Source of the DNA: Candidatus Omnitrophota bacterium
GTDB lineage: Bacteria; Omnitrophota; Gorgyraeia; Zapsychrales; JANLHA01
Reading direction: 5' to 3'
Length of the DNA: 64,000 nucleotides
NCBI GenBank assembly: GCA_020632535.1
Contig: JACKFJ010000003.1
Span: 38,166-102,165, forward strand
Of the stretch, positions 2,696 through 35,208 are shown in pieces (within the stretch, counting starts at the first letter, position 1; each line of letters starts with the position of its first letter). Made by a program: the position numbers and the translations under genes. The notes under the pieces were generated by a model. The model was not told where the DNA came from and did not search any database. It was given only the letters and a program-made list of their open reading frames with translations.

Positions 2696-2697
2696 TG

Positions 2698-3160
2698 ACC
2701 ATTGCGAGCCGCGAAGAGCGCGAGTCCTTGTTAGAACTAGGAGCGAATAATAACACCCATTGCAAGGAGCAAAGCGACGCGGCAAAAATAGTGTCCATTG
2801 CGAGCCCCGCAGGGCGCGGCAATCTATTAGAATTAAAAGTGAAATGAAGAAACTTGATCACATCTGGCATTCTTTTAATGTATTTTGTCATTCCCGCAAT
2901 ATATTTTGTCATTTTCTCAATGTATTCTGTCATTCCCGTAATATATTTTGTCATTCCCGCGAAAGCGGGAATCCACTTTCAAAAAATGGATCCCCGATAA
3001 AAGCATTCGGGGATGACAATATTTTCGTCCATTGCGAGCCCAGAATTATAGCTCTCATTGCAAGGAGCGAAGCGACACGGCAATCATGGATAGATTGCTT
3101 CGTCACTACGTTCCTCGCAATGGGAATACGGATTGCCACGCCCTTCGGGCTCGCAATGGT
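2698..3160. repeat. Composite palindromic repeat block R1 (left bracket of cassette)
   Basis: Contains three cattgcgag-type modules, a conserved spacer, four 21-bp units, the hairpin attcccgc-gaaa-gcgggaat, the hairpin atccccga..tcggggat, and nested palindromes ccattgcgagccc (3029-3041) / gggctcgcaatgg (3147-3159). Positions 2698-3027 are near-identical to 12488-12770. Confidence 0.9.
2877..2960. repeat. Tandem array of four 21-bp units (aatRtattYtgtcattYYcgY)
   Basis: Units at 2877-2897, 2898-2918, 2919-2939 and 2940-2960 abut directly with no spacers. The last unit supplies the 5' arm of the hairpin that closes at 2965-2972. Confidence 0.9.
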
Positions 3161-3169
3161 TGAGATTTT

Positions 3170-5155
3170 TTACTGCGCAAGAATTTTAAGCAAAGCATCT
3201 TGGCTAGATTGGGCGCCTTTGTGATCTGGGTTGATTGTAAGAGCCATTTTGAAATCCTTAGCCGCTTCCTGATATCTTCCTGTTATCGCCAAAACATTTC
3301 CACGCCCATAATAAGCATCCGCGTACTTTGGATCAATGGAAAGTGCCTTATTATAATTTTTTAATGCCTCATTAAGCATTCTTTTCTGCTCAAAAACCAC
3401 CCCAAGATTTTTATAAATTTCACTATTTCGAGGATCAAGTGCTACCGACCGCTGAAAATCCGCCAATGCCAAGTCATATTGTTTTCTGATTCCATAAATC
3501 GATCCGCGCTTATTATAACCAATCGCCGACTGTGGATTAATCATGATAAGCTTTTGAAAATGCTCAAATGCACGATCAAATTCGCCCTTAGCCAAATAAA
3601 AATCACCGAGATTATAATGAGCTTCGGCATTCTGCGGATCGATTTCAAGCGCCTTGTTAAAACTCTCAGAAGCTTTTTCCAAATCATTATTCATCAAAAA
3701 AACAATTCCAAGATTATTATAAGCTTCATCAAAATTGGGTTTAAGTTCGATCGCTTTTAAAAAATCATTTAAAGCCGCATCCGTTTTTCCACTCATCCCA
3801 TACAATTGCCCGCGACTGTTATAACTTTCAGCGTATTTGGGATCAACAGCAATGGACTTATTAAAATCATTTAGTGCAAGTTGATATTGTCGTGCATCCT
3901 TATAAGCCTCGCCACGATTACCATAAGCCATCGCATTGTCGGGATAATATTTGATTTCGTGAGTCCAGAACGTGACGCTATTATTCCAGATTTTTGTTTG
4001 CGCAAACGTCTTTGAGCAGAGCATAAGAGCGATCAACACAAGAGACGCCGTTAGAGCTTTACGAAACACTTCTTTTTTGGAAATTTTCTTTAAAAGATAA
4101 TCGATGCAATATCCGACAAGAAAACAGATGCCAAGACACGGAAGATATAAAAACCGATCCGCTACGATACTTTTATCAACGACACTGTCATAACGAAAAA
4201 GAAAAAACATCGATAAAAAATAAAATCCCAAGGCAAACCAAAGCCAACGATTCCGGCGCCAAACAAAAGCCACAATTGCAATACCAATCAATAATGCAGC
4301 AGCACCAAGATAATGCGGATTCATTAACGAAATAGGTTGCGGCAAAGCATACATCGGGACTAACGGAGAAGGGAAAAAGAATTTAGAAATATAAAACATG
4401 GCGGTCCAAATCCAAATAATCGCGCCCGAGGAAATATTTTCACCGGGAACACGCGCGTTTAAAGAATACGTGATCCACGCAATCGAAACGATATAGAGAA
4501 AATGGGGAATTTTATCAATAATCATCCACTTATCAAACTGTCTCTTTTTAAGCCAGTCGCACACAAATAAAATCAAAGGCAAACTCAATGCCATCGGTTT
4601 CGCCAAAATACTCAAAAGCCCAAAGACAATAGTTAGGGCGTACGCAAGCATTTTTCGTGTCGACAAATATCGCCAATAAAAACAAAGCGCCAACATATAA
4701 AAAAACGCGTAGAGAACATCCTTGCGTTCCGTGACCCACGCCACCGACTCGACATGCATTGGATGAATTCCAAATAATAACGCAGCCACAAAAGCCGCTC
4801 GCAAAGGCAAATTGACTTGTAGGGCAAAATAAAAAACCAATGCGGTTACCGCAAGGTGCAGCAACAAATTATTCAAGTGATAAATAAAAGGATTATATTT
4901 AAAGAAATGATATTCAATGGCAAAGGAAAGGAATGTCAGGGGAACGTAAACCTTGCTAACAGTCGTTGTAAAGATTTCCTGAACATGTTGCGCGTCAAGA
5001 ACACGAATAGCCGCGTTCTCTAAAAGATGCGAATCATCGTCAAAATAAATAAAATTATTTCGCAATGTCGGCAAGTACGATAAAAAAGTGATGGCAAGGA
5101 TAATCAACAAAACCTTCACTGCATTTTTCGTCAAGAGATTATTACTTGTCATCAA
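3170..5155 (-). CDS. GT-C-type membrane glycosyltransferase with C-terminal TPR array (TMTC/DUF1736-like), paralog 1
   Basis: 661 aa. The first-loop motif is FIYFDDDSHLLEN. The DUF1736-like signature is HPMHVESVAWVTERKDVLY. It has about 10 TM helices followed by about 8 TPR units (AxxYxNRGxxY periodicity). Confidence 0.75.
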   Translation of the reverse strand: MMTSNNLLTKNAVKVLLIILAITFLSYLPTLRNNFIYFDDDSHLLENAAIRVLDAQHVQEIFTTTVSKVYVPLTFLSFAIEYHFFKYNPFIYHLNNLLLHLAVTALVFYFALQVNLPLRAAFVAALLFGIHPMHVESVAWVTERKDVLYAFFYMLALCFYWRYLSTRKMLAYALTIVFGLLSILAKPMALSLPLILFVCDWLKKRQFDKWMIIDKIPHFLYIVSIAWITYSLNARVPGENISSGAIIWIWTAMFYISKFFFPSPLVPMYALPQPISLMNPHYLGAAALLIGIAIVAFVWRRNRWLWFALGFYFLSMFFLFRYDSVVDKSIVADRFLYLPCLGICFLVGYCIDYLLKKISKKEVFRKALTASLVLIALMLCSKTFAQTKIWNNSVTFWTHEIKYYPDNAMAYGNRGEAYKDARQYQLALNDFNKSIAVDPKYAESYNSRGQLYGMSGKTDAALNDFLKAIELKPNFDEAYNNLGIVFLMNNDLEKASESFNKALEIDPQNAEAHYNLGDFYLAKGEFDRAFEHFQKLIMINPQSAIGYNKRGSIYGIRKQYDLALADFQRSVALDPRNSEIYKNLGVVFEQKRMLNEALKNYNKALSIDPKYADAYYGRGNVLAITGRYQEAAKDFKMALTINPDHKGAQSSQDALLKILAQ

Positions 5156-7037
5156 TACTCCGCTGTAAGTCTTGTACGAGTTTCATTTTTAAGTCATCAA
5201 TAAACTTTTCATCTATTTTATATCCAGCTTTTCGCGCGCGCTCCGCCGACATGAGCGACATATCATAAATTCCCAATTCATAAAAAACCTGCGAACAATT
5301 AAAATACGCATTTGCTGACACTTGCTGCCATTTAAAAACTTTTTGACAATCATTTCGTGCCTTGTCCGTTAATTTCATGTGTAAATAACATAGAGCACGA
5401 TAACTGTACGCGTCAGGATAATTGGGTGCCAACTTAATCGCTCGGGATAAGTCCGCCAAACCTTTATCAAATTCACCAAGACGAACATAAAGCATACCGC
5501 GATTCCCGTAACCTAGAACATAGTCGGGATCGGAAGCAATCGCGCGACTAAAATCTTCCAATGCCGCAGGTATTTTTCCCTCTTTTTCAAAAAGCAATCC
5601 ACGATTGTTATAAGCACCACTATAATTCGAATCCGATTCAATCGCTTTTGTATATTCTAAAATTGCTTCTTTTGTGTCCCCAGTTCGTTCATAAATCATG
5701 GCAAGATTCTTATGCACTTTGGAATAAGTCGGATTAATGCGCACAGATTCTTGATAGTCAGCTAAAGCAAGATCATATTGCTCACGACTAACATAAATTC
5801 GGCCACGATTATTGTATGCGACAAACGATTCTGGTGAATGCTTAACCGTATAATTCCAAAACGTAAAAGAATCCTTCCAAATCGAAATCTGTGAAAAAGT
5901 TTTGATCGACAAAGCCAAGGCCGCAACAATCAAGACCGTAATGATGACATTTTGTGCGACAACAGAAAGAAAGTTTTCCTTCCAGAGCCTTTCAATTACG
6001 TATCCGACAAAAAGACAAAACCCAACGCTGGGAAGATACATATAGCGGTCAGCAACAATTTGCATAAAACGTGGATAATCAAAGTTTAAAAGAAAGAAAA
6101 TCGACGAAATATACCATAACAGCGCGAAGCGAAACCAACGGTTTTCCCAAACAATTCCAACAAAAACACTGCCCGCGACTATAAGAACCGCAAACCAGTA
6201 TTGAAAATGAAGAATATTGGCTGGTAAAACCGGAACATAGACCGGAACGAGAAAAAAAGGCCAAAAGAATTTCTTAATATAAAATGCAGCGGCCCAAAAC
6301 CTTAACAATAGATTTGAATCAACCGTTTGTGAAAGGGAATTGGCACTCATTAAAAATGTTATAGCGGCTAAAGGAATAATAAATATGAAATATGGGATTT
6401 TATTAAAATAATCTTCATTTTTAAATTTCCCATTTAAGAACCAATCACACAATAACAATATCAATGGCAAACTTAAGGCCATGGGTTTTGCCAGCATACT
6501 GATAAATCCCATCGTAAGTGACAGCCCATAATATAACCATTTCCTTGTTTTTAAGAAACGCAAATACCACAAAACCGCGCCCAAATAAAACACACTATAA
6601 AGAACATCTTTGCGCTCAGTAGCCCAAGCCACGGACTCAACATGCATAGGATGAAGGCTAAAAATAAAGGCCGCGATGATTGATCCACTGTTTCCAAGTC
6701 CCAACGCTAAACTCAAGCGAAAGATTAAAAAAACCACAAGCAAATGCAAAAGAATATTATTTAGGTAGTAGAGCCATGGATTAAGGCCAACGAAATGATA
6801 TTCCACGGCAAATGATAAAATTGTTAAGGGAATATATGTTTTTTGAACTGTCGACGTCATAATGTTCCAGACGTTTTGTGGAGACACGGAACGGATTTGC
6901 GGATTATCAACAATATGAGTGTTATCGTCCCAATTGATAAATTCATGACGAAGTGTGGGAGAGTAGATCACAAAAGATACAAAAAGAAGCACGCCGATCA
7001 TAAGGAGATGTTGATGATCTTTGAGAAAAGTTTTCAT
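5142..7037 (-). CDS. GT-C/TPR (TMTC/DUF1736-like) glycosyltransferase, paralog 2 (most divergent)
   Basis: 631 aa with FINWDDNTHIVDN, HPMHVESVAWATERKDVLY and C-terminal TPRs. Its 3' end overlaps the paralog 1 start by 14 nt. Confidence 0.75.
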   Translation of the reverse strand: MKTFLKDHQHLLMIGVLLFVSFVIYSPTLRHEFINWDDNTHIVDNPQIRSVSPQNVWNIMTSTVQKTYIPLTILSFAVEYHFVGLNPWLYYLNNILLHLLVVFLIFRLSLALGLGNSGSIIAAFIFSLHPMHVESVAWATERKDVLYSVFYLGAVLWYLRFLKTRKWLYYGLSLTMGFISMLAKPMALSLPLILLLCDWFLNGKFKNEDYFNKIPYFIFIIPLAAITFLMSANSLSQTVDSNLLLRFWAAAFYIKKFFWPFFLVPVYVPVLPANILHFQYWFAVLIVAGSVFVGIVWENRWFRFALLWYISSIFFLLNFDYPRFMQIVADRYMYLPSVGFCLFVGYVIERLWKENFLSVVAQNVIITVLIVAALALSIKTFSQISIWKDSFTFWNYTVKHSPESFVAYNNRGRIYVSREQYDLALADYQESVRINPTYSKVHKNLAMIYERTGDTKEAILEYTKAIESDSNYSGAYNNRGLLFEKEGKIPAALEDFSRAIASDPDYVLGYGNRGMLYVRLGEFDKGLADLSRAIKLAPNYPDAYSYRALCYLHMKLTDKARNDCQKVFKWQQVSANAYFNCSQVFYELGIYDMSLMSAERARKAGYKIDEKFIDDLKMKLVQDLQRSIDDK

Positions 7038-7040
7038 TCG

Positions 7041-9038
7041 CTACTTCTTTTTTGCTTTTTCGCCATCGGTAAGAATTTTTATCAAAGCTCTTTGACTCAT
7101 TTTGGCTCCCTCATGATCTGGGTTAATTGCGAGAGCCGCGCTAAAATCTTTGGCCGCTTCTCCATACCGACCGGTAATGGCAAAGACATTGCCGCGACCA
7201 AAATACGCATCAACATATTTAGGATCAATAGCCAAAGCTTTGTTGTAATTTGCAATCGCTTCATTAAACATTTTTTTTTGCTCAAAAACAATACCACGGT
7301 TTTTATAAACCTCACTGTTTCGGGGATCCAACGCCAAGGAACGATTAAAATCTGCCAATGCTAAATCATATTGTTTTCGCATTCCCAAGATCATCCCGCG
7401 CTTGTTATATCCACCCGCGGAATTAGGATTAATCATTAAATGCCTCTGAAAAAATTGAAATGACTGATCATATTCACCGTTTAGAAAATGGAAATTCCCA
7501 AGATTATAAAGTGCCTCCGCATTTTGCGGATCCATTGCGAGGGCTTTTTGAAAATATGAAGCCGCTTGCGGCATATCGTTTTTCATGGCGTAAATAATGC
7601 CGATATTGTTATAAGTTTCATCAAAATTTGGTTTAAGTTCCAAAGTTTTTAGAAAATCCTGCAAAGCCTCATCGAGCTTGCCACTCATTCCCAGCATTTG
7701 CCCGCGGCTATTGTAACCTTCAGCGTAGTCCGGATCTACCTCTACAGCTTTATTAAAATCCGCGAAAGCCAATTGATATTTCCCGGCATCTTTGTAAGCT
7801 TCACCGCGATTGACAAGCGCCATGGCATTCGTCGGATAATATTTGAGTTCATGACTCCAAAATGGAATATTGGCACTCCAGATTTTTGTTTGCGCAAATG
7901 TCTTGCCACACAACATAAGGGCGATAAAGATAAGGAAGATAATAATCGCTGTTTCCCATTTCTTTTTGTTGGCAACTTTTTTAAATATAAGATCTATCCA
8001 ATACCCAAACAAAAAGCAAAACCCCACAGAAGGCAAATACATAAAGCGATTTGATGTCGGCGGTAAATACTTAATATCATCAAAACGAAAAAGAAAGAAA
8101 ATAGAGACTAAATAAAAAAGAAATGAAAATATTAATAATGTATTCCTACGAAAATGCCATAGGACAAATCCTAAAGAAATTGTGATCAGAAATGAAAAAG
8201 CAAATTCAGGATTAAAAATCGTAAACGGCTTTGGAAATTGCGTAAAAAGAACCAGATCAACAGGCCACACAAATTTTTGCAGATAAAACGCAAAGCACCA
8301 AACCCAGAACAATATGGCTTCGTATACATTTTGAATTGGATTGCGAGCATTCAGAAGATATGTCAACATCGCAATCGGAATAATATAAAGAAAATGTGGA
8401 ATCTTATCTAGGATCATCCATTTGTCAAACTGACGTTTTTTGTACCAATCGCAGACCAAAAAAATCAGTGGTAAACTCAGCGCCATGGATTTGGCTAAAA
8501 TGCTTAACACCCCAAATCCGATTGTTGCGATATATAAAATAATTTTTCGCGATGATAAATACTGCCAATAAAAGCAAACCGCCAACATATAAAAGAAGGA
8601 GTAGAGGACATCTTTGCGTTCGGTCACCCACGCCACCGATTCGACGTGCATTGGATGAATTCCAAACAATAATCCACCAATAAAGGCCGCGCGCAAGGGT
8701 AGGCCAATTTGCAAAGCAAAATAAAAGATCAAAGACGTGACAGCCAAATGCAAAAGAAGATTATTAAGGTGATACACAAAAGGATTGTATTTAAAGAAAT
8801 GATACTCGACAGCAAATGATAAAGTGGTTAAGGGAACATAAGTGGGGTTAAACGGCTTGGTAAAAATCTGCTTGATATGGTCAAAATCGAGGCCACGAAC
8901 AGCCACATTGTCATAGAGATGCAAATTGTCGTCATTGTTAAGAAAACCGCTCTTTAATGTCGGTAAATAAGACAAGAAAGTAGTCAACAAAATGATAGCA
9001 AGAAAACTCGCGACTTTTGTTTTATAGCCGTATGTCAT
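7041..9038 (-). CDS. GT-C/TPR (TMTC/DUF1736-like) glycosyltransferase, paralog 3
   Basis: 665 aa with FLNNDDNLHLYDN and HPMHVESVAWVTERKDVLY. The TPR region is nearly collinear with paralog 1. There is a GGA-rich SD upstream of the ATG at 9038. Confidence 0.75.
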   Translation of the reverse strand: MTYGYKTKVASFLAIILLTTFLSYLPTLKSGFLNNDDNLHLYDNVAVRGLDFDHIKQIFTKPFNPTYVPLTTLSFAVEYHFFKYNPFVYHLNNLLLHLAVTSLIFYFALQIGLPLRAAFIGGLLFGIHPMHVESVAWVTERKDVLYSFFYMLAVCFYWQYLSSRKIILYIATIGFGVLSILAKSMALSLPLIFLVCDWYKKRQFDKWMILDKIPHFLYIIPIAMLTYLLNARNPIQNVYEAILFWVWCFAFYLQKFVWPVDLVLFTQFPKPFTIFNPEFAFSFLITISLGFVLWHFRRNTLLIFSFLFYLVSIFFLFRFDDIKYLPPTSNRFMYLPSVGFCFLFGYWIDLIFKKVANKKKWETAIIIFLIFIALMLCGKTFAQTKIWSANIPFWSHELKYYPTNAMALVNRGEAYKDAGKYQLAFADFNKAVEVDPDYAEGYNSRGQMLGMSGKLDEALQDFLKTLELKPNFDETYNNIGIIYAMKNDMPQAASYFQKALAMDPQNAEALYNLGNFHFLNGEYDQSFQFFQRHLMINPNSAGGYNKRGMILGMRKQYDLALADFNRSLALDPRNSEVYKNRGIVFEQKKMFNEAIANYNKALAIDPKYVDAYFGRGNVFAITGRYGEAAKDFSAALAINPDHEGAKMSQRALIKILTDGEKAKKK

Positions 9039-9056
9039 AGGTAGTATCCTTGGTGA

Positions 9057-9084
9057 ATTGTAACGTAAAGTCCGCTACTTTCAA
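9057..9084 (-). promoter_or_regulatory. Candidate sigma70 promoter for the GT-C/TPR trio
   Basis: On the minus strand: TTGAAA (9084-9079), a 16-nt spacer, TACAAT (9062-9057), then an aagga SD and the ATG at 9038. Confidence 0.4.
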
Positions 9085-9107
9085 GCACTTTAAAAGACAA
9101 AAATGTG

Positions 9108-9136
9108 TTGCTAGAGTTGCAGTACGTGTTTATATT
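9108..9136 (+). promoter_or_regulatory. Candidate sigma70 promoter reading into repeat R2 and the propeller gene
   Basis: TTGCTA (9108-9113), a 17-nt spacer, TATATT (9131-9136). It lies back-to-back with the minus-strand promoter. Confidence 0.35.
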
Positions 9137-9196
9137 TATTGGTATCATGTATTTTGACCATTATGAAATTGGAACTGAAATAAAATGAAACAATCG

Positions 9197-9452
9197 AATA
9201 TAATCTGTCATTCCCGCTATATATTTTGTCATTTTCTCAATTTATTCTGTCATTCTCTCAATGTATTCTGTCATTCCCGCAATCTCTTAGCGGGAATCCA
9301 TAATTTGAAAAATAGATCCCCGATGACCAACGGAAATCCCCGGTTCGAGGGGATTAGAGTATTCGGGGATGACAATATTCTTGCCCATTGCGAGCCCCGC
9401 AGGGCGCGGCAATCTCGAATAGATTGCTTCGTCGCTACGTTCTTCGCAATGG
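9197..9452. repeat. Composite palindromic repeat block R2 (internal copy)
   Basis: Four 21-bp units (9197-9217, 9218-9238, 9239-9259, 9260-9280). Hairpin attcccgc(9273-9280)/gcgggaat(9290-9297). Nested hairpins atccccga..aatcccc-ggttcga-ggggatt..tcggggat. Then cattgcgagccccgcagggcgcggcaatc...agattgcttcgtcgctacgttcttcgcaatgg. The module order is the same as in R1 and R3. Confidence 0.9.
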
Positions 9453-12400
9453 GATTGATTTTTCTTTCCACCCCCGCGTTTGCCAATAATCTTGTCATAA
9501 GCAATGTCACCCTTGAAGACCGTAACGCGACGGCAAACACAATGGTCGTGCAGTTTAATATTTCATGGGATCACTCATGGCGAAAGAATGACGGTCGCCA
9601 TGACGCGGCGTGGGTGTTTGTAAAAATTAATAATTCCACTCCACCGTGGAAACATGGTTTACTTTATACCGCTGGAACCAATCCCACCAATACATCACCG
9701 GGCACCAATAGCGATCTTAAAATTGTCATTCCCTCAGATAAAGTCGGCGCGTTTATTTCACGAACAGCGACGGGTAATGGGACTTTTTCGTCACAAAAGG
9801 TTCGCCTTACTGTTGACTACGGCAGTAGTGGGATTGCAGACACGGATACCGTGCAAGTAAAAGTATTTGGTATCGAAATGGTCTACATTCCCGAAGGACC
9901 GTTTTATGTTGGAGAGAATAATACTAACGCCGATGAAACAGCTGCGAGTATTTATAAAGTATCTGATGCTGCTGTCATAGTTTTTAATTCTAGTGGAACT
10001 TTCCAATGGGCCAAGCGTTTAGGTGGAACAAATAATGATCTTGCAAGGGCTGTCGCTTCAGGTAGCAATTCCAATATTATCGTCACCGGTGATGCTTACG
10101 GAAATTTTGATTTAAATGGAGATGGTGATACCGCTGATACCAATGAATCGACAGGTGGAGTATATGCAGTAAATGATGCGTATTTATCAGTTTTTAATTC
10201 TAGCGGGACTTTTCAATGGTCCAAGCGTGTAGGTGGAGCTGCTGGTGACTATGGGCAAGCAGTGGCAGTTGACCACAATAACAATATTATTTTCAGTGGG
10301 TATTGTCAAAACAATGTTGATTTAAACGGCGACGGTGATACCGCTGATAGCAATGAAACCGGCGGCGGTGTATATGGAAACAGCCAAGACGGATTTATTT
10401 CGGTTTTTAATTCTAGTGGGACTTTTCAATGGTCAGAGCGGTTAGGAGGAACTACTGTTGATCAGGCAAAGTCTGTCGCAACAGATAGTAGTAATAATAT
10501 CATTGTTAGCGGATCCGTTACTAATAATGCTGACTTAAACGGCGATGGTGATACCAGTGATGCTAATGAATCTGGGGGAGGAGTTTATGAAGTTGCTGAT
10601 GCGTTTATATCCGTTTTGAATTCCAGTGGGACTTTTCAATGGTCTAAGCGTTTTGGGGGAACTGGTAGTGATTCTGGAGAATCTGTTGCAACGGATAGCA
10701 ATAAGAATGTTATCATTACCGGCGCTGTCAACGGTAATGCCGACTTAAACGGAGATGCTGATACCGCCGATTCGAACGAAACAGGGAGTACAGGTGTATA
10801 TGGAAACAGTGATGTGTTCATCTCTGTTTTTAATTCTAGTGGGACTTTTCAATGGTCTAAGCGTTTAGGTGGAACTTTTACAGATAGCGGAAATGCGCTC
10901 GCAGTGGATAGCAATAATAATATCATCGCAGGAGGGTATGTTGACCGTAATGCTGATTTAAACGGAGATGCAGATACCGCCGATGCTAATGAAACTGGTA
11001 CTACAGGGGTATATTCAGGTACCGATGGATTTATCTCTGTTTTTAATTCAGCGGGGACTTTCCAGTGGTCTAAACGTCTTGGGGGCTCAGGTACTGATTA
11101 TGTATATGCTGTTGCGGTCGACAGTAATAATAATATTCTGGTTAGCGGGTACGTGACTGGTAATGCCGACTTGAACGGAGATGCGGATACATCGGATACA
11201 AATGAAACCGGCGGTGGAGTATATGGAAGTATTGATGCCTTTATCTCTGTTTTTGATTCGAGCGGAACTTTCCAATGGGCGAAACGTTTGGGAGGTAATA
11301 GTAGTGATTATGGATATAGTGTTGCAGTAGACAGAAATAATAATATTCTCTTAGGTTGGAGGTTTACCGGCAACGCCGACTTCAATGGCGACGCGATTAT
11401 TTATCCGACATATCCGTTTTATACCACAGGCGCGGATGATGCCGCCGTCCAAATTACAACCAGCGGCCAAGCTTTGACCGTTGTGACCAATTCCAATGAT
11501 GATATTGATACTTCACCTATCACTGTCACAGGACTTGCCGGTGTAACAGGCAATACATCTTGGCCTAATGGTTATTCTGCTTTTTACATGATGAAATATG
11601 AAATGACACAAGGGCAGTATGTCGACTTTCTCAATACTTTATCGAGAGTTCAGCAAAGCACACGTGTTGAAGCCACGGTCACCGGCAACACCATTGCTAA
11701 TTATTATGTCATGTCAAATGGAACATCCGTTTCAGCTCGTAATGGCATACGTGCTCCCGCATCTGGTAATGGAACAAGTCCTACGCCCATTGTTTTTGGA
11801 AATGACTTAAGCGCAAATGGTGTATTTAATGAAAGTAATGATGGACAGAATATCGCGATGAATGTTTTGAGTTGGGGAGATTTATTGGCTTACGCGGATT
11901 GGGCAGGTTTGCGGCCTTTTACCGAACTTGAATTTGAAAAAACAGCTCGCGGCCCTAATAGCGCCGTAAGTAATGAATATGCTTGGGGGACATCTGTGGT
12001 TACCATTGCATCCACAATTCTTGATGATGGTCGAAATACTGAGAGAGTCAGTGAGTCTGGAGAAGGACTCACGACACTTGAGAATTATACAGCCGGTCCT
12101 TTAAGAGTTGGCTTTGCCGCGACCAATGCAACGAATCGTATCAGCGCAGGCGCGGGATATTATGGAAATATGGATCTTTCTGGTAATGCCGGAGAAATGG
12201 CTGTCACTTTAGGTAATAGCGTAGGCCGATCATTTACGGGAACACACGGGGACGGAACATTAACGAGCACTGCGAGTTTTGAAGGCAATGCGACCAATAC
12301 GGATTGGCCGGGTATCAATGGGACAACAAATAAAGGGGTAACGGGCGCCAGCGGTTCGGGATCCCGAGGGAGCACTTGGTTTGGTCAAATATATCCCTTG

Positions 12401-12487
12401 ACAAGTCGCCTTGAAGCTTCATTAACGGACAGTTCTCGCTCTAGTTTTGGGAATAACGGCGGTCGACTTGCCCGCACCGCGCCGTAA
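9449..12487 (+). CDS. Secreted/surface protein: N-terminal beta-sandwich, then a seven-blade SBBP-like beta-propeller with Ca-loop motifs, flanked on both sides by FGE-sulfatase (SUMF1-like) domain segments
   Basis: Seven ~70-aa repeats (VFNSSGTFQW[AS]KRLGG..D....VA.D..NNII..G......DLNGD[GA]DT[AS]D.NE[ST]GG.VY). MVYIPEGPFYVG lies before the repeats. YMMKYEMTQGQYVDFLN...LAYADWAGLRPFTELEFEKTARGP...GGRLAR lies after them. The frame is open from 9185, but 9185-9448 is repeat R2. The start is uncertain: the ATG at 9449 gives MGLIFLSTPAFA/NN. Confidence 0.7.
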   Translation: MGLIFLSTPAFANNLVISNVTLEDRNATANTMVVQFNISWDHSWRKNDGRHDAAWVFVKINNSTPPWKHGLLYTAGTNPTNTSPGTNSDLKIVIPSDKVGAFISRTATGNGTFSSQKVRLTVDYGSSGIADTDTVQVKVFGIEMVYIPEGPFYVGENNTNADETAASIYKVSDAAVIVFNSSGTFQWAKRLGGTNNDLARAVASGSNSNIIVTGDAYGNFDLNGDGDTADTNESTGGVYAVNDAYLSVFNSSGTFQWSKRVGGAAGDYGQAVAVDHNNNIIFSGYCQNNVDLNGDGDTADSNETGGGVYGNSQDGFISVFNSSGTFQWSERLGGTTVDQAKSVATDSSNNIIVSGSVTNNADLNGDGDTSDANESGGGVYEVADAFISVLNSSGTFQWSKRFGGTGSDSGESVATDSNKNVIITGAVNGNADLNGDADTADSNETGSTGVYGNSDVFISVFNSSGTFQWSKRLGGTFTDSGNALAVDSNNNIIAGGYVDRNADLNGDADTADANETGTTGVYSGTDGFISVFNSAGTFQWSKRLGGSGTDYVYAVAVDSNNNILVSGYVTGNADLNGDADTSDTNETGGGVYGSIDAFISVFDSSGTFQWAKRLGGNSSDYGYSVAVDRNNNILLGWRFTGNADFNGDAIIYPTYPFYTTGADDAAVQITTSGQALTVVTNSNDDIDTSPITVTGLAGVTGNTSWPNGYSAFYMMKYEMTQGQYVDFLNTLSRVQQSTRVEATVTGNTIANYYVMSNGTSVSARNGIRAPASGNGTSPTPIVFGNDLSANGVFNESNDGQNIAMNVLSWGDLLAYADWAGLRPFTELEFEKTARGPNSAVSNEYAWGTSVVTIASTILDDGRNTERVSESGEGLTTLENYTAGPLRVGFAATNATNRISAGAGYYGNMDLSGNAGEMAVTLGNSVGRSFTGTHGDGTLTSTASFEGNATNTDWPGINGTTNKGVTGASGSGSRGSTWFGQIYPLTSRLEASLTDSSRSSFGNNGGRLARTAP
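9980..11400 (+). repeat. Intragenic tandem repeat, seven units of 210-213 bp (propeller blades)
   Basis: The motif gtttt(t/g)(a/g)attc... recurs at 9980, 10190, 10403, 10613, 10826, 11039 and 11249. Nucleotide similarity between units is high. Confidence 0.9.
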
Positions 12488-12797
12488 ACCATTGCGAGCC
12501 GCGAAGAGCGCGAGTCCTTGTTAGGACGAGGAGCTAAGCGACGTGGCAAAAATAGTGTCCATTGCGAGCCCCGCAGGGCGCGGCAATCTATTAGGATTAA
12601 AAGTGAAATGAAAAAACTTGATCACATCTGGCATTCTTTTAATGTATTTTGTCATTCCCGCAATATATTTTGTCATTTTCTCAATGTATTCTGTCATTCC
12701 CGCGAAAGCGGGAATCCACTTTCAAAAAATGGATCCCCGATGAGAGCATTCGGGGATGACAATATTTTCGCTAACGTTCGCAATGGGAGTGATTTTT
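12488..12797. repeat. Composite palindromic repeat block R3 (right bracket of cassette)
   Basis: Positions 12488-12770 are near-identical to 2698-3027. It carries three 21-bp units (12641-12661, 12662-12682, 12683-12703). The tail acgttcgcaatgggagtgattttt resembles the R2 tail acgttcttcgcaatgggattgattttt. Confidence 0.9.
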
Positions 12798-12826
12798 AGT
12801 ATTAACAAAAAAGACAGGAGAAAGAC

Positions 12827-13372
12827 ATGAAAAAAACTGTAATTTTTTTATTGATAGGAATTTTCTTAGGATTGATTGCTCTGGCACAAAATAATGTCTT
12901 TGCTCAAGACAAAACCTTAAGTGCGATTGCTAATATGAGTAGCACGATGCCAGATTCCGCAATCACTGGAACTGTGAAATTAACCGAAACATCGGACGGT
13001 CTTAAAGTTACCGCAGATATTAAGGGCATACCTTATAAAGGGCCACTTGGATTTCATATTCACGAAGTTGGAAATTGCAGTGATATGGGTAAAGCTGCCG
13101 GTGGCCATTTTAATCCTGACAAGGTTATGCATGGAATGTTAATGAAAGACGGAGCCGAACACGCCCACATTGGCGACATGGGTAATATTGTCGTCGATGC
13201 GACTGGTCATGCCAAACTTGAGGTAACTCTGCCCGATGTTGGTTTAGAAAACTGGCGCTATAATGTCGGAGGTCTTTCCATTATTTTGCATGAAAAGGCT
13301 GATGATTTTGGCCAACCAACAGGCAATGCCGGCGGACGTATCGCCTGCGGCATTATTGAAGTACAAAAGTAA
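12827..13372 (+). CDS. sodC: Periplasmic Cu,Zn superoxide dismutase
   Basis: Signal peptide, then GFHIHEVGNC, GGHFNP, HIGDMGN and a LHEKADD...GNAGGRIACGII C-terminus. There is an aggag SD. Confidence 0.9.
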   Translation: MKKTVIFLLIGIFLGLIALAQNNVFAQDKTLSAIANMSSTMPDSAITGTVKLTETSDGLKVTADIKGIPYKGPLGFHIHEVGNCSDMGKAAGGHFNPDKVMHGMLMKDGAEHAHIGDMGNIVVDATGHAKLEVTLPDVGLENWRYNVGGLSIILHEKADDFGQPTGNAGGRIACGIIEVQK

Positions 13373-13407
13373 TACCGTCGCGAGCCCTTTTTATAGGAGT
13401 ATAAATT

Positions 13408-13947
13408 ATGTTTTCAATCACGAACAGTGCTCTCTTGGTTATAGACGTGCAGGGAAACCTTGCACAACGTATGCACAAAGCTGAGCATTTGCTTGAACGC
13501 ATCTGCCTTTGTATCAAAGCCGCAAAGATTATGGAATTACCGATCATTTATACTGAACAAATTCCCGCAAAATTGGGCAAAACCACATCGACAGTTGCCG
13601 AACTTTTACGTGATATAATTCCAATCGAAAAAACGACTTTCAGTTGCTGGGAAAATCCTGATTTTGTCCAAAAGATACAAAGTCTAAAGCGATCGCAAAT
13701 TTTTGTTGTTGGAATCGAAGCGCATGTTTGTATTTTTCAAACTGTTTCGGATTTATTGAAAGCCAATTTTAAAGTGCAAATTGTTACTGACGCGGTTTCG
13801 TCGCGAATAGAAGACAATAAAACAATTGCGCTAACACGTATGAAAGATTTGGGCGCTATTTTAACATCATCAGAGATGATGGCGACCGAGTTGATGCGTA
13901 CCGCGGAATATAAATATTTTAAGGAGATCCTTTCACTTATCAAATAA
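13408..13947 (+). CDS. Isochorismatase-family cysteine hydrolase
   Basis: ALLVIDVQ near the N-terminus and VVGIEAHVCI (catalytic Cys context). 179 aa. Confidence 0.7.
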   Translation: MFSITNSALLVIDVQGNLAQRMHKAEHLLERICLCIKAAKIMELPIIYTEQIPAKLGKTTSTVAELLRDIIPIEKTTFSCWENPDFVQKIQSLKRSQIFVVGIEAHVCIFQTVSDLLKANFKVQIVTDAVSSRIEDNKTIALTRMKDLGAILTSSEMMATELMRTAEYKYFKEILSLIK

Positions 13948-13958
13948 CCATTATTAGT

Positions 13959-14032
13959 GTCATTCCCGCAATCCTTTAGCGGGAATCCATAATTAAAAAT
14001 ATGGATCCCCGATAGGAACCTTCGGGGATGAC
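13959..14032. repeat. Palindromic repeat locus R4 (two hairpin modules)
   Basis: gtcattcccgc-aatccttta-gcgggaatcc (13959-13988) and ggatccccga-taggaacc-ttcggggatgac (14003-14032). Confidence 0.9.
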
Positions 14033-14049
14033 GTCAGGGGGGATATTTC

Positions 14050-16017
14050 GTGCCAAACTCCAAACAGAAAAATCATGCAAATGTTTCGACACTTTTAGAC
14101 GAATCCCGTATTTTTTCACCTTCCAAAAAATTTCTCTCAAACGTGCAAATCAAGGATGATTCATTAATTAAAAAAGCCGCGCAAGATCGTCTAGCTTTCT
14201 GGGCGCAGTGGGCCAGCAAATTGACATGGAGTAAGCCATGGGACAAAATTCTCGATTGGACGGACGCGCCTTTTGCCAAATGGTTTGTCGGTGGCAAACT
14301 CAATGCATGCGTTAATTGTGTTGATCGCCATATAAAAGCTGGTAAAGGTCAAAAAAAAGCATTTATTTGGGTTGGTGAAAATAGCGACCAGCGGACATTA
14401 ACGTACGCTGATGTTTTTGCTGAAGTCAACAAATTAGCAAATGTTATCAAAGATTTGGGTATTACAAAGGGTGACCGCGTAGCCATTTATCTGCCGATGG
14501 TTCCGGAAGCAATGATCAGCATGCTAGCGTGCGCTCGAATCGGCGCCGTCCATACCGTTGTTTTTGGCGGCTTTAGTGCCGATTCTTTGCAAAGTCGCAT
14601 CAATGATTGTGAAGCGAAATTATTAATTACCGCCGATGGTGGTTATCGTCGTGGAAACGTTTTGCTCCTAAAAGAAATCGCGGATAAAGCAATCACAGGT
14701 TGTCCATCAGTTAAAAATGTTCTTGTCGTGCAAAGAACAAAATCATCTGTCAAAATGATTTCGCAACGCGATCACTGGTATCATGAACTGTTAGCAAAAG
14801 CCAAACCCCAATGTCCACCTGAAGAAATGGATTCAGAAGATCTACTTTTTATTTTATACACATCTGGCACAACAGGAAAACCAAAAGGAATTATTCACAC
14901 CACCGGCGGATATATGACTGGAGTTGCGGCGACGACAAAATGGGTTTTTGATTTACAAGACGAGGATATCTTTTGGTGTACTGCCGACGTAGGATGGATT
15001 ACCGGCCACAGTTATATTGTTTACGGTCCCATGGCCAATGGGGCAACACAAGTCATATACGAAGGCTCGCCGGATTTTCCGCAACGCAATCGCTTTTGGA
15101 AAATCATTGAAGAGCACAAAGTAAGCATTTTTTACACTGCACCGACAGCGATTCGCGCTTTCATGAAGTGGGGTATCGAGTGGCCGAAAGGGTGCGATCT
15201 TTCCAGTCTTCGACTTTTAGGCAGTGTTGGCGAACCGATCAACCCAGAAGCATGGGTTTGGTATCACGAACACATCGGCCGCAGCAATTGTCCTATCGTC
15301 GACACATGGTGGCAGACAGAAACAGGATGTATTTTGATTTCACCACTGGCTGGCATTACCGATCTTAAGCCCGGCTCGGCAACAAAATCGCTTCCGGGTA
15401 TTGACGTAAAAATTATTAATGAAGACGCGAAAGAAATAAAAGAAGGCGGCGGCTTTTTGGTTTTGACGAGTCCGTGGCCTTCGATGCTGCGCGGAATTTA
15501 TGGCGATCCTAAGCGTTATAAAGAAACATACTGGAGCAAATGGTCAGAAAATATTTATTTTACCGGTGATGGTGCCAAGAAGGACACGGATGGATATTTT
15601 TGGCTTTTGGGACGAGTTGATGACATTATGTTGGTCGCGGGACATAATATTTCAACCATGGAAGTTGAAAGTGCGCTCGTTGATCATCCTGCGGTTGCCG
15701 AAGCCGCGGTTATTGGCGCGACTGATGAAATCAAAGGACAAGCCATTGTCGCTTTTGTCACATTAAAAGAAGGAAAACCTTCTCTTGATAGAATCGAAGA
15801 TATTCTAAAGGCGCATGTCGCAAATAAAATTGGCGCGATTGCCCGTCCACGACAGATCATTTTAACTGCGGACCTTCCCAAGACCCGCAGCGGAAAAATT
15901 ATGCGTCGCCTTTTACGTGACGTAGCCGAAGGTCGCGCTCTTGGTGACGTGACAACTTTGGCGGATGTAGAAGTTGTGGAAGCTTTGAAAAAAAAATACG
16001 AACATGTTGAGTCATAA
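14050..16017 (+). CDS. acs: Acetyl-CoA synthetase (AMP-forming)
   Basis: GTG start. YTSGTTGKPKG AMP-binding motif, WWQTETG, and C-terminal PKTRSGKIMRRLLR carrying the regulatory lysine (K616, codon 15895-15897). Confidence 0.92.
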   Translation: MPNSKQKNHANVSTLLDESRIFSPSKKFLSNVQIKDDSLIKKAAQDRLAFWAQWASKLTWSKPWDKILDWTDAPFAKWFVGGKLNACVNCVDRHIKAGKGQKKAFIWVGENSDQRTLTYADVFAEVNKLANVIKDLGITKGDRVAIYLPMVPEAMISMLACARIGAVHTVVFGGFSADSLQSRINDCEAKLLITADGGYRRGNVLLLKEIADKAITGCPSVKNVLVVQRTKSSVKMISQRDHWYHELLAKAKPQCPPEEMDSEDLLFILYTSGTTGKPKGIIHTTGGYMTGVAATTKWVFDLQDEDIFWCTADVGWITGHSYIVYGPMANGATQVIYEGSPDFPQRNRFWKIIEEHKVSIFYTAPTAIRAFMKWGIEWPKGCDLSSLRLLGSVGEPINPEAWVWYHEHIGRSNCPIVDTWWQTETGCILISPLAGITDLKPGSATKSLPGIDVKIINEDAKEIKEGGGFLVLTSPWPSMLRGIYGDPKRYKETYWSKWSENIYFTGDGAKKDTDGYFWLLGRVDDIMLVAGHNISTMEVESALVDHPAVAEAAVIGATDEIKGQAIVAFVTLKEGKPSLDRIEDILKAHVANKIGAIARPRQIILTADLPKTRSGKIMRRLLRDVAEGRALGDVTTLADVEVVEALKKKYEHVES

Positions 16018-18608: not shown

Positions 18609-20522
18609 ATGCTTGACGCAAAAATACCATCCGGTCCTTTAAAAGATAAGTGGTCGAGCCATAAGCTTCATCTGCAATTGGTCAATCCGGCGAATAAACG
18701 CAAGTATCAAGTGATTGTCGTTGGGACTGGCTTGGCAGGGAGTTCTGCGGCCGCGACACTCGCAGAATTGGGCTATCGGGTCAAAGTATTTTGCATTCAG
18801 GACAGCGCGCGGCGCGCGCATAGCATTTCGGCTCAAGGCGGCATCAACGCGGCAAAAAATTACGCAAATGATGGGGATAGCATTGAACGGCTTTTTTACG
18901 ACACAATCAAAGGTGGTGATTTTCGCGCCCGTGAAGCCAATGTGCATCGCTTAGCCGAAGTGAGTAACGCCATTATCGATCATTGCGTAGCTCAAGGCGT
19001 GCCTTTTGCGCGTGAATATAGCGGCTATTTGGATAATCGTTCTTTTGGTGGAGCGCAAGTGTCACGGACATTTTATGCCCGAGGGCAAACTGGTCAACAG
19101 CTTTTACTCGGTGCTTATAGCGCTTTGCGCAAAGAAGTTGAACGCGATAATGTTGAAATTCGTCATCGTACCGAAATGCTCGATTTAGTCACGATCGATG
19201 GTGTCGCCAAAGGCATTATTATTCGTGATCTTATTACCGGAAAAATTGAATCGCATTCCGCTGATGTTGTGATCATGGCCACAGGTGGCTATTCGTCGAT
19301 ATTTTATCTTTCGACGAATGCCAAAGCGTGCAATGCCACAGCGATTTGGCGTGCTCATAAACGCGGTGCGTTTATGGCCAATCCTTGCTACACACAAATT
19401 CATCCAACATGCATTCCTGTTCACGGTGAATATCAATCCAAGTTAACATTAATGAGCGAAGGATTGCGCAATGACGGACGCGTTTGGGTTCCAAAGCAAG
19501 CTGGGGACAAACGATTGCCAAGTGAAATTCCCGAAGAGGGCCGCGATTATTTTCTCGAACGAAAATATCCCACGTTTGGAAATCTAGTGCCACGGGATAT
19601 CGCCTCGCGCAGTGTCAAAGAACTCTGTGACGCTGGCCAAGGCGTTGGAGATACTGGCATGGCTGTTTATCTAGACTTGAGTGCCGCCATTGAGCGACTT
19701 GGCAAAGAAAAGATTGCGGAACGTTATAGCAATTTGTTTGAAATGTATGAAAAAATTTCTGGTCACAACCCATATGAATATCCAATGATGATTTATCCCG
19801 CGCCGCATTACACAATGGGTGGACTTTGGGTTGATTATAATTTAATGAGCACCATCCCGGGTCTCTTTGTTTTAGGAGAAGCTAACTTTTCTGATCATGG
19901 CGCCAATCGCTTAGGTGCCAGCGCGTTAATGCAGGGCTTGGCTGATGGATATTTCATTATCCCGTATACCGTCGGGGATTATCTCGCGCAAATCACCCCA
20001 ATCAACACCGATATTACAACATTTGCCGCGTTTAAAGAAGCCGAAGGGCAAGTCGTCCAAAAAGTCTCACGCCTCGTAAGTGCCAAAGGGAAACGTACGG
20101 CTGATGATTTTCATAAACAATTGGGTAAGTTATTATGGGACAAATGCGGTATGGCACGGACAGAAGCTGGTTTACACGAGGCCTTGGATAAAATTCCGGA
20201 AATCCGTTCCGAATTCTGGGATAATATCAACGTACCGGGGAGCGGAGAAGATCTCAATCAAAGTCTCGAAAAAGCCGGCCGCGTCGCAGATTATCTCGAG
20301 TTTGCCGAACTTTTTGTCAGGGACGCTTTGCATCGCAAAGAGTCATGCGGTGGACACTTCCGTACTGAATACCAAACTCCCGAGGGTGAGGCCAAACGCG
20401 ATGATGAAAAATTTTGTTATGTCGCGGCATGGGAGCATATTGAAGGACAAAATGAACAACAACTACATAAGGAAGCTTTGAAATTTGAAAGCGTTAATTT
20501 AACTCAACGCAGTTACAAATAA
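18609..20522 (+). CDS. sdhA: Succinate dehydrogenase/fumarate reductase flavoprotein subunit
   Basis: [15 protein letters not shown] fold, [13 protein letters not shown] (covalent FAD His context), [20 protein letters not shown]. Confidence 0.92.
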
Positions 20523-20548: not shown

Positions 20549-20577
20549 GTCATCCCCGAAAGCTTTTATCGGGGATC
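20549..20577. repeat. Palindromic repeat locus R5 (single module, inverted orientation)
   Basis: gtcatccccga-aagctttta-tcggggatc is the reverse orientation of the ggatccccga..tcggggatgac module. Confidence 0.85.
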
Positions 20578-33072: not shown

Positions 33073-34260
33073 ATGAAATTACTTACTGCTCCCATGGCCG
33101 AAAGAATTGTCCTCGAAGCCGCAAAGCCTGCTCGTGCTGTTTTAATTGAACTTTCCGAATGTTATGGTCAAGTGCTCGCTGAAAATATTTATGCTGACCG
33201 CGATCAACCTTCAACTGATCGCTCAGCAATGGACGGAATTGCGATTTCTTTTAGCAGCTGGCAAAAGGGAACACATAATTTCCGTATTGAAGGAATTCAA
33301 AAAGCCGGTATCGCGCAAAAAAAACTATCGAAAAAGGATGGCTGTTTTGAAATCATGACCGGTGCTGTTATTCCACAAGGATGTGATTGTGTCATTCCTG
33401 TAGAAATGGTAAATATCATCAAGGGTCGAGCTATTATCAAAACTGATACCAAAATTAATCGTTTTCAATTTATCCGTAAGCAGGGGAGTGAGTATAAAAA
33501 AGGAACATTGCTTCTCGAAGAAGGAACAGAAATCGGTCCGACACACATTGCTGTGGCGGCAGCCGTTGGCAAAGATAAAGTCGCGGTTTATTCGCCCAAA
33601 ATTGCAGTAATCGATACCGGCGATGAACTTGTGGATGTGAATAAACCAATCAAATTGCATCAAACTCGACGGTCCAATGCTTATGCGCTTGAGGCTTTAT
33701 TCCACTGCCATGGTTTTCGTGCTGTTACAAAATTCCATCTCAGTGATAATATTTTGAAATTAGAAGCCAATATCACATGGATCCTTGCCAATTACGATGT
33801 GATTGTTTTGAGTGGCGGCGTTTCGATTGGGAAATTTGATTTTGTACCCCAAGTTTTAACCAAACTCAATATTAAAAATCTCTTTCACAAAGTCGCACAG
33901 CGGCCCGGTCGACCATTATGGTTTGGGGTGAGCCAAAGCGGGCAAACGGTTTTTGGTTTACCGGGCAATCCCGTTTCAACAATTGTTTGTGCTTCACGCT
34001 ATGTTTTGCCACATCTTAAAAAATCCTGTGGTTTTAAGAATTTCACCCCATTGGTCAAATTAGCCAAGTCTATAAAACGAAATCCCCGTTTAACATTACT
34101 TTTACCCGTTTCAATCAACACATCCCGTGAAGTTCGTCTTGTTGGTTACGCTGGATCTGGTGATTATAGCGCGTTAACCGAATCCGATGGCTTTGTTCAA
34201 ATCGCGCGCGGCAAGGGCGTTTTGAAAAAAGGGACAAAGGTTAGATTCTTCAAATGGTAA
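33073..34260 (+). CDS. moeA: Molybdopterin molybdotransferase
   Basis: 395 aa with SAMDGIA, TGDEL, GGVSIGKFDF and LPGNPVS motifs. Confidence 0.85.
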   Translation: MKLLTAPMAERIVLEAAKPARAVLIELSECYGQVLAENIYADRDQPSTDRSAMDGIAISFSSWQKGTHNFRIEGIQKAGIAQKKLSKKDGCFEIMTGAVIPQGCDCVIPVEMVNIIKGRAIIKTDTKINRFQFIRKQGSEYKKGTLLLEEGTEIGPTHIAVAAAVGKDKVAVYSPKIAVIDTGDELVDVNKPIKLHQTRRSNAYALEALFHCHGFRAVTKFHLSDNILKLEANITWILANYDVIVLSGGVSIGKFDFVPQVLTKLNIKNLFHKVAQRPGRPLWFGVSQSGQTVFGLPGNPVSTIVCASRYVLPHLKKSCGFKNFTPLVKLAKSIKRNPRLTLLLPVSINTSREVRLVGYAGSGDYSALTESDGFVQIARGKGVLKKGTKVRFFKW

Positions 34261-34870: not shown

Positions 34871-34952
34871 ACCCTGTACGAGGAATAAAGTGAGGAAGCA
34901 TTCTCGAGGGTGACAAAATAGATTGCTTCGTCGGTGACGCTCCTCGCAATGG
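34871..34952. repeat. Palindromic repeat locus R6 (degenerate cattgcgag-type module)
   Basis: agattgcttcgtcggtgacgctcctcgcaatgg (34920-34952), preceded by a decayed partner arm ccctgtacgaggaataaagtgaggaagc. Confidence 0.7.
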
Positions 34953-34962
34953 TACAAATTTT

Positions 34963-35208
34963 ATGACTAAAACCATTCAAATTCAATACTTTGCCATTCT
35001 GCGGGAACAAAGAGGTGTAAGCGCGGAAAGTTTCGTGACAACGGCCACGACAGCGCGGGAACTTTATAGCCAGATACAATCGCAACATCGTTTGAGTCTA
35101 CCTCCAGATCTAGTCCGCGTTTCAATTAACAATGAATTTAAAAATTGGGATACTGTCCTAACCTCTGGTGACCACATCGTTTTCATTCCACCCGTAGCGG
35201 GTGGCTAA
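34963..35208 (+). CDS. moaD: Molybdopterin synthase sulfur-carrier subunit (ubiquitin-like, C-terminal GG)
   Basis: 81 aa ending ...FIPPVAGG. Confidence 0.8.
   Translation: MTKTIQIQYFAILREQRGVSAESFVTTATTARELYSQIQSQHRLSLPPDLVRVSINNEFKNWDTVLTSGDHIVFIPPVAGG

Follow-up and report, generated by a model that had tools for sequence, protein, structure and literature searches.

Hairpin repeats in a Candidatus Omnitrophota genome probably belong to the Ssn-associated dRS3/NTS/SRM family

In Neisseria, a 28-nucleotide (nt) motif termed NTS, CGTCATTCCCGCGMAVGCGGGAATCYRG, encompasses the dRS3 repeat (ATTCCC-N8-GGGAAT), and its degenerate generalization is the Ssn-related motif, or SRM (Chenal et al., Nat Commun 2025, PMC11893778). 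The NTS hairpin arises in single-stranded DNA (ssDNA), where it is bound and cut by SsnA, a small GIY-YIG protein that acts on neither double-stranded DNA nor RNA. The cut falls just 5′ of the palindrome; the key bases are a GTC before the palindrome for cleavage and a C after it for binding, and removal or extension of the hairpin loop is tolerated (PMC11893778). Cleavage has been demonstrated for Neisseria, N. elongata, N. wadsworthii and Wolbachia, and ssn genes are typically bracketed by the motif (PMC11893778). Here we analyze a 64,000-nt stretch of a Candidatus Omnitrophota genome (contig JACKFJ010000003.1; hereafter the window), in which short palindromes recur between genes, among them a doublet at 13958–14033 that we use as the focal locus. 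We consider it probable, at roughly 0.65, that these palindromes are Ssn-related hairpin repeats of the dRS3/NTS/SRM family.

A preliminary description of the window had recognized three hairpin modules, a, b and c, at nine loci. Read on the minus strand, b becomes GTCATCCCCGA...TCGGGGATCC, so that a and b are one oriented hairpin, GTCAT-stem-loop-stem-ATCC. Instead of separate modules they are two variants of this hairpin placed in opposite orientation, with stems that lie two double (compensatory) changes apart. Every a+b pair consists of a ‘+’ copy followed by a ‘−’ copy. At the focal locus, between an isochorismatase gene (13408–13947) and acs (14050–16017), the forward strand reads tGTCATTCCCGC-AATCCTTTA-GCGGGAATCCat, then a 14-nt A/T spacer, then atGGATCCCCGA-TAGGAACCT-TCGGGGATGACg. 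The left, plus-strand member is the a hairpin at 13959–13987, GTCATTCCCGC-AATCCTTTA-GCGGGAATC(C); the right, minus-strand member is the b hairpin at 14004–14032, which reads GTCATCCCCGA-AGGTTCCTA-TCGGGGATC on its own strand. As DNA, the focal a hairpin folds with −8.1 kcal/mol (z −5.0) and the doublet (13955–14036) with −17.9 kcal/mol (z −4.84). Inverted a(+)/b(−) doublets stand at 2950/2989, 9270/9315, 12693/12732 and 13959/14004, and c doublets, also in the order ‘+’ then ‘−’, at 3053/3093, 9383/9422 and 53739/53785.

The c unit, CATTGCGAG...GCAATC, is built on a basal stem of 5 bp (ATTGC/GCAAT), above which come an internal loop rich in G and A and an apical hairpin that varies; its frame, GTCAT...ATCC, is common to a and b. 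Canonical c copies in other phyla (GTCATTGCGAG...GAAGCAATCC) have this same frame. All 10 a/b hairpins of the window read GTC-AT...AT-C. The c units of the window keep the 3′ C and have GTCC, ACC, CCC or CTC on the 5′ side, where canonical c of other phyla has GTC. Folded as ssDNA, single units reach z scores of −3.9 to −5.0 and doublets of −4 to −6, with weaker values at 34921–34954 and 57071–57121.

By regular expression, the window holds 10 complete a/b hairpins, 11 c units and 8 tandem 21-nt half-sites; according to the open reading frame (ORF) list and this inventory, all copies are intergenic and none lies within a real gene. With at most one mismatch, GTCATTCCCGC occurs 11 times (0.75 in dinucleotide shuffles), TCGGGGATGAC 7 times (0.51) and CATTGCGAG 43 times (16.7); with at most two mismatches, AGATTGCTTCGTC occurs 6 times (1.4). 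The content described for the nine loci is present at all nine, and their placement at operon boundaries and inside operons, between sdhA and sdhB and between coxIII and coxIV, agrees with the gene coordinates. That the elements fill most intergenic gaps was an overstatement, since by the ORF list about 18 gaps are 50 nt or longer and 9 of these contain elements, which make up roughly 40% of intergenic bases. They do create spurious ORFs, as had been proposed, at 2760–3224 and 12518–12799, with the translation ...FCHSRNIFCHSRESGNP...HCEPRRARQS...DCFVTTFLAMG.

The published SRM pattern, HGTCWYN(0-2)YYVSBRHN(0-5)WNVSBRGN(0-2)RNCYNB, matches four a copies in the window (at 2949, 9269, 12692 and 13958, the focal match spanning 13958–13990) compared with 0.14 in 100 shuffles; the strict 28-nt NTS has no match in the window. 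The dRS3 pattern ATTCCC-N8-GGGAAT occurs at 2950 and 12693 (ATTCCCGCGAAAGCGGGAAT), in copies that differ from NTS at the flanks only, and the other a copies have N13. A scan with GTCATYCCCGM-N4-14-KCGGGRATCC, using one genome per species, matched at least 120 stretches, and the matches listed, drawn from almost every bacterial phylum, include Bacteroidota, all proteobacterial classes, Chloroflexota, Nitrospirota, Planctomycetota, groups of the candidate phyla radiation (CPR), Omnitrophota and Neisseria, the last with Neisseria lactamica (L081). Among the 178 hairpins in the matches listed, 157 have a 4-nt loop, mostly GAAA, GAAG or GCAG. The first free stem position is T-A in 145 of them, C-G in 30 and mismatched in 3, and the second is C-G in 165, A-T in 13 and mismatched in none. 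Compensatory stem substitutions, which the preliminary description had proposed to look for, are thus found, with the free positions paired in 175/178 and 178/178. Inverted doublets are frequent among these matches, and GTCAT forms the hairpin foot in 178/178 of the cross-phylum copies listed, as it does in the window. Given the loop-length bias, the co-varying free positions and the many inverted doublets, the cross-phylum matches are not due to chance. The a/b pattern was also seen in at least 120 stretches of IMG/VR viral contigs (L216–L335) and in a contig binned as Nanoarchaeota (L105), which may be misbinned.

Which enzyme accompanies these hairpins? GIY-YIG genes among the 120 hairpin loci listed were located by requiring hairpins on both sides of an ORF, which gave two intact genes of 94 amino acids; another GIY-YIG gene (L023), a pseudogene with distant hairpins, was set aside. 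With these two genes as seeds, 80 metagenomic ssn loci were collected. A ‘+’ hairpin lies within 120 nt upstream of ssn in 48/74 loci, mostly 10–30 nt from the start codon, a ‘−’ hairpin lies downstream in 54/75, mostly within 20 nt of the stop codon, and both are present together in 33/69. These figures are close to the 71% and 42% published for the association of ssn with its motif (PMC11893778). Because ssn is bracketed by a ‘+’ and a ‘−’ hairpin, the window doublets correspond to the same cassette arrangement without the gene. At one ssn locus (L194), doublets with the 9-nt loops of the window and the same inner-pair variants occur on both sides of the gene, with the hairpins GTCATCCCCGC-AATCCTTTA-GCGGGGATCC and GTCATTCCCGA-ATGTCTCTA-TCGGGAATC.

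Module c is found next to ssn as well. In a Thiobacillus-like locus (L196), two identical c copies bracket ssn, ‘+’ upstream and ‘−’ downstream at the usual distances, and five further loci of the same clade (L207–L215) have the same c-ssn-c arrangement; the c copies at all of these loci read GTCATTGCGAGGCG(A/C)AGCCGAAGCAATCC. This bracketing suggests that c, too, is an Ssn-flanking motif. A literature search for c-type strings returned unrelated primer matches only, none in a repeat context. As a separate observation, the c/ssn/c cassette of the Thiobacillus-like clade (L196, 187–2535; L207–L215) is stably kept between sdhA and sdhB, with growing arrays of c doublets downstream of it. The sdhA-sdhB gap holds a b hairpin in the window and c/ssn/c in that clade, which may be coincidence.

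Three mosaic arrays of mixed orientation, R1 to R3, are built of these units. R1 (2698–3161), between an Exo_endo_phos gene and the first of three TPR genes, contains c0 from 2698 with a CGCGAAGAGCGCG core (2710–2722), a degenerate c2 near 2757, c1(+) at 2793–2824, three 21-nt 5′ half-sites (2886–2946), a(+) with a GAAA loop (2950–2973) and b(−) at 2989–3017. It continues with a c1 left arm at 3027, the nested c2(+) (3053–3085) and c2(−) (3093–3125), and c1(−) at 3131–3161. The DNA folds with z −4.98 at 2946–3021 and with −33.9 kcal/mol (z −5.6) at 3026–3163. R2 (9206–9454), between the third TPR gene and an SBBP/FGE-sulfatase gene, has three half-sites (9206–9266), a(+) at 9270–9298, b(−) at 9315–9373, c1(+) at 9383–9414 and c2(−) at 9422–9454, the last overlapping the 5′ end of the SBBP gene; 9382–9455 folds with −21.8 kcal/mol (z −4.1). 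R3 (12488–12790), between the SBBP gene and sodC, has c0 with its core at 12500–12512, c1(+) at 12557–12588, two half-sites (12650–12689), a(+) at 12693–12716, b(−) at 12732–12760 and a truncated c2(−) near 12770–12790. R3 is 98% identical to R1 over 174 nt, the 13-mer CGCGAAGAGCGCG opens both arrays, and short-read contigs of the same organism end exactly at R1 and R3.

The half-sites are polar. They consist of the 5′ arm alone (GTCAT, the 5′ stem and a 7–11-nt spacer), repeat with a period of 18–27 nt and stand directly upstream of a complete hairpin. Such arrays precede 24 of 552 hairpins, at 21 loci in many phyla, compared with 5, 4 and 0 for three control arrangements; the loci include the window (2886–2946, 9206–9266 and 12650–12689), L040, L069, L127, L195 and 16 others. 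Copies are also nested. A c2 doublet lies within a c1 doublet at 3027–3161, the b loop at 9315–9373 holds a 39-nt insert with a hairpin of its own, and at L130 (411–459) a b-type hairpin sits within the loop of an a hairpin; this b-type copy matches the sdhA-sdhB copy of the window throughout the 5′ arm and loop and in part of the 3′ arm.

One element reaches into a gene. The SBBP/FGE-sulfatase ORF spans 9185–12487, its alignment with orthologs begins only at residue 79, and c2(−) at 9422–9454 encodes ...DCFVATFFAMG..., the start of the SBBP signal peptide. It is likely that translation starts at the ATG within CGCAATGG (9446) or at the ATG at 9323. It seems that c2(−) took the place of the native 5′ end of SBBP, a probable case of a hairpin element remodeling the start of a real gene.

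How stable are these copies? We compared the window with three syntenic Omnitrophota contigs, L122, L123 and L124, whose Acs proteins are 90%, 78% and 77% identical to that of the window. In the window, sdhA (18609–20522) is followed by a single b-type hairpin on the plus strand at 20549–20577 (GTCATCCCCGA-AAGCTTTTA-TCGGGGATC; z −3.85) and then by sdhB; this gap is 73 nt long, measured to the ATG start of sdhB, compared with 4, 9 and 9 nt and no hairpin in L122, L123 and L124. Since the copy is absent from 3/3 syntenic relatives, the operon has no need of it. Upstream of acs, the window has a+b where L122 has a c doublet, and in L124 the corresponding gap is 6 nt long and contains no element. 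R3 is absent from L122, and no such hairpin element was found in the 20 kb of either L123 or L124. That some sites are empty in these relatives, and that another module can stand in place of the window copy, indicates that turnover is recent.

R1, R2 and R3 lie exactly at the borders of gene cassettes that vary between these relatives, such that the three-TPR and the SBBP cassettes are each bracketed (window 2696–12826). In L123 (3339–7765), the Exo_endo_phos and SBBP genes abut and the three TPR genes are absent; in L124 (8143–9455), Exo_endo_phos and sodC abut and both the TPR and the SBBP cassettes are absent. As 98% identical direct repeats 9.7 kb apart, R1 and R3 would be a substrate for deletion. 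The REP/MITE-like behavior claimed for the elements (REP, repetitive extragenic palindrome; MITE, miniature inverted-repeat transposable element) is borne out, through inverted doublets, mosaic arrays like those of BIMEs, and gain and loss between close relatives. An unrelated near-perfect palindrome of 140 nt (GCGGCCGGGATCGGGGCTAGGTTCCCCGC...) lies between hemN and hemE in L123 (18710–18849).

On the reading that we favor, the window elements are members of the dRS3/NIME (neisserial intergenic mosaic element), NTS and SRM family, and the window doublets (a+b, c+c′) are miniature, non-autonomous derivatives of the hairpin-ssn-hairpin cassette from which the gene is absent. The core is then a known system, of which c is apparently an undescribed sequence variant. 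One or more cognate Ssn nucleases would be encoded outside the window, and could nick extruded or incoming ssDNA at the hairpins. Repair or template switching after nicking might then allow hairpin copies to spread, to nest and to be replaced, and the same process might delimit gene cassettes that are open to exchange; effects on mRNA, if any, would be a by-product. The 9-nt loops and the 39-nt loop insert fit with this, because SsnA tolerates removal or extension of the loop (PMC11893778).

The likeness to the neisserial repeats is specific. NIMEs are reportedly arrays that include RS blocks. As with dRS3/NIME, the window has ATTCCC-N8-GGGAAT (at 2950 and 12693) and mosaic arrays at the borders of variable cassettes; it differs in phylum, in that its arrays are built of c units and half-sites rather than RS blocks, and in the absence of a DNA uptake sequence (DUS), Correia or Nf-phage context. 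With the NTS/SRM-Ssn system the window elements share the oriented GTCAT-palindrome-ATCC frame, a core that is identical in the GAAA-loop copies, an extragenic position with clustering around particular genes, the ‘+’/‘−’ pair typical of ssn, and occurrence across phyla. They differ in that the host belongs to Omnitrophota, a phylum not mentioned in PMC11893778, most window copies have 9-nt loops, module c does not fit the SRM pattern, PMC11893778 describes neither nested copies nor polar arrays of 5′ half-sites, and the window has no ssn gene.

Several observations weigh against this placement. There is no ssn gene in the 64-kb window or in the 8 kb to its left, and a homologue search with the ssn seeds returned close relatives only (Methylophilaceae, Thiobacillus), with no Omnitrophota ssn identified. 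The assignment of the GIY-YIG genes to ssn (cd10448) is putative and draws on a Pfam GIY-YIG match, a length of 94–101 amino acids and flanking hairpins; the ssn-like protein has no NCBIfam name, and a PDB sequence search gave spurious WD40 matches only. The b copies, with their 9-nt loops, and all c copies lie outside the published SRM regular expression. The 9-nt-loop subtype is tied to ssn by a single locus, L194, and the link between c and ssn comes from one vertically inherited lineage and is effectively one independent observation. Window c units have GTCC, ACC or CTC in place of GTC, the bases most important for cleavage in Neisseria. For the same Neisseria sequence, a Group 2 RAYT, or REP-associated tyrosine transposase, has been held responsible (Bertels & Rainey, bioRxiv 10.1101/2021.07.10.451892).

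A more far-reaching version of the Ssn reading, which we regard as speculative and rather unlikely to hold as a whole, is that the hairpin-ssn-hairpin cassette is a mobile element of a new mechanistic class, in which a GIY-YIG ssDNA nuclease rather than an HUH transposase copies the doublets. Polar half-site arrays, nesting and module replacement would be its footprints, c would be a second recognition class with an Ssn specificity of its own, and the system would have reached almost every bacterial phylum, Omnitrophota and CPR groups among them, as well as viral contigs.

Could a transposase account for the repeats instead? They could be REP/REPIN elements that depend for upkeep and duplication on a RAYT (HUH-Y1) whose gene lies elsewhere in the genome. 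In favor of this, short extragenic palindromes in inverted doublets are what defines a REPIN, the mosaic arrays resemble BIMEs, and the identical Neisseria core ATTCCCGCGCAGGCGGGAATC has been classed as a REPIN and assigned to a Group 2 RAYT (bioRxiv 10.1101/2021.07.10.451892). REP/BIME/REPIN-RAYT systems (Nunvar 2010; Ton-Hoang 2012; Bertels & Rainey) also share with the window elements the construction of mosaics from a few motifs and, like ssn, have a single-copy, host-resident enzyme gene that is bracketed by its own repeats. However, the enzyme bracketed by the present hairpins, in about half to two thirds of the 80 ssn loci, is a GIY-YIG nuclease and not an HUH-Y1 protein. The RAYT or IS200-like partner that had been suggested did not come to light: tblastn with E. 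coli rayT gave no match at E≤1 in 1.18 Mb (the window and the hairpin loci), a weak test with a single distant query, and all-against-all clustering of ORFs of at least 90 amino acids near hairpins in the 120 loci listed gave no recurrent transposase, only housekeeping families and a small-protein cluster that proved to be HU/IHF. The 5′ guide is GTCAT, not GTAG. The GTAG tetranucleotide is said to be typical of the foot of RAYT-type REPs. We regard a RAYT origin as improbable. Classical MITEs of a DDE-type insertion sequence, or target hairpins of the IS110/IS1111 type, are the least probable source and in our view very improbable. On the side of such a source, the elements are small, have inverted repeats and are polymorphic for presence or absence, and REP-like hairpins are known targets of the IS110 family, as with QMITE2 and IS1111. 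QMITE2/GTAG-REP of Coxiella burnetii (Wachter et al. 2018, PMC5896051) resembles the window elements in having a REP-like hairpin core in 3′ untranslated and intergenic regions, full and truncated versions, and occurrence outside its genus. It differs, compared by description and not by sequence, in its length of 150–190 bp, its terminal inverted repeats, its 7–11-nt direct repeats, its GTAG-type REP and its role as an IS1111 target (PMC5896051). Against either kind of element, the sdhA-sdhB copy shows no target-site duplication relative to the empty site of L122, a comparison of one site in diverged intergenic sequence, neither the window nor the 120 hairpin loci listed yielded a transposase, and the unit is a 25–30-nt hairpin conserved across phyla, not a lineage-specific pair of terminal inverted repeats. 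CRISPR repeats, integron attC sites and Rickettsia RPE were dropped, as no feature matched them.

It had also been suggested that the elements act in RNA processing, stability or differential expression, as mRNA stabilizers, RNase processing sites or attenuators that tune sdhA/sdhB and coxIII/coxIV. Copies lie within operons and at operon ends, where they would be transcribed, and the hairpins are stable. E. coli REP elements stabilize upstream mRNA and offer a general precedent. Nevertheless, the whole window has no Rfam match at the gathering threshold, and with R1 and the focal locus searched at E≤1 there were just two chance hits, far below that threshold. No a, b or c hairpin is followed by a T-run, and hence a U-tract, on the coding strand, and terminator-like sites in 12400–14200 number 2, both on the minus strand, compared with 2.1 in shuffles. 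In L122, L123 and L124 the sdhA and sdhB genes abut with no hairpin between them, one gap can hold different modules in genomes with 90% identical Acs, and copies occur in both orientations. Stem mismatches show no preference for G-U (2, compared with 1 C-A, of the 178 hairpins listed), and SsnA does not bind RNA and acts on ssDNA (PMC11893778). A function at the RNA level is therefore unsupported, and we think it slightly less plausible again than a RAYT origin; side effects on RNA may nonetheless occur.

Placing the elements within the dRS3/NTS/SRM family, as we favor, assigns repeats that fragment an Omnitrophota assembly and generate spurious ORFs to a recently characterized system, supplies a concrete enzyme to look for, and would extend the Ssn-type hairpin system to a candidate phylum. 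The new details comprise the 9-nt-loop subtype, polar half-site arrays, nesting, the replacement of one module by another at a single site, and the c variant, which we did not find described by sequence, which is linked here to ssn, and which escapes the published search pattern. Both the polar half-site arrays and the turnover at the edges of cassettes may help to explain how such repeats multiply. For annotation, the motifs should be masked ahead of gene calling.

The remaining copies in the window are isolated. At 34871–34952, which had been described as a decayed c locus, the partner arm (34871–34912) is indeed decayed and the right-hand unit is intact; this c2 unit, on the minus strand at 34921–34954, reads TACCATTGCGAGGAGCGTCACCGACGAAGCAATC on that strand, folds weakly (z −1.4) and lies between a mobA-like gene (34254–34862) and a ThiS/MoaD gene (34963–35208). 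A c2 doublet at 53739–53830, downstream of a VWA/anti-sigma gene (51343–53733), consists of c2(+) at 53739–53777 and c2(−) with an insert at 53785–53830 (−21.7 kcal/mol, z −5.7). Between CoxIII (56447–57067) and CoxIV (57136–57501) is a decayed doublet (57071–57121; z −2.2), in which what is left of an a 5′ arm (TTTCCCGCAATCTTTTGA) is followed by a degenerate b(−) hairpin at 57093–57121.

The element at 50566–50666 (z −5.85) is related but distinct. It had been called a variant of the family, and its CGCGAAGAGCGCG core is indeed common to the c0 units of R1 and R3; in other respects it is a different inverted-repeat element, in which inverted arms of 26 nt enclose a core of about 50 nt. A second copy of this core occurs in the same organism about 4.5 kb upstream of the window start (L336, 3500–3596), in reverse orientation and within entirely different outer inverted repeats. 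Two sets of coding repeats in the window are unrelated to the hairpins, namely the three tandem paralogous TPR genes (3170–9038), with 72–74% DNA identity, and the 210–213-nt tandem repeats of the SBBP beta-propeller gene (9965–11323). Finally, ARAGORN predicts a 99-nt tRNA-Cys at 794–892, which lies within the ORF at 188–1021 (an EamA-type gene, as judged from L336) and is probably a false positive.

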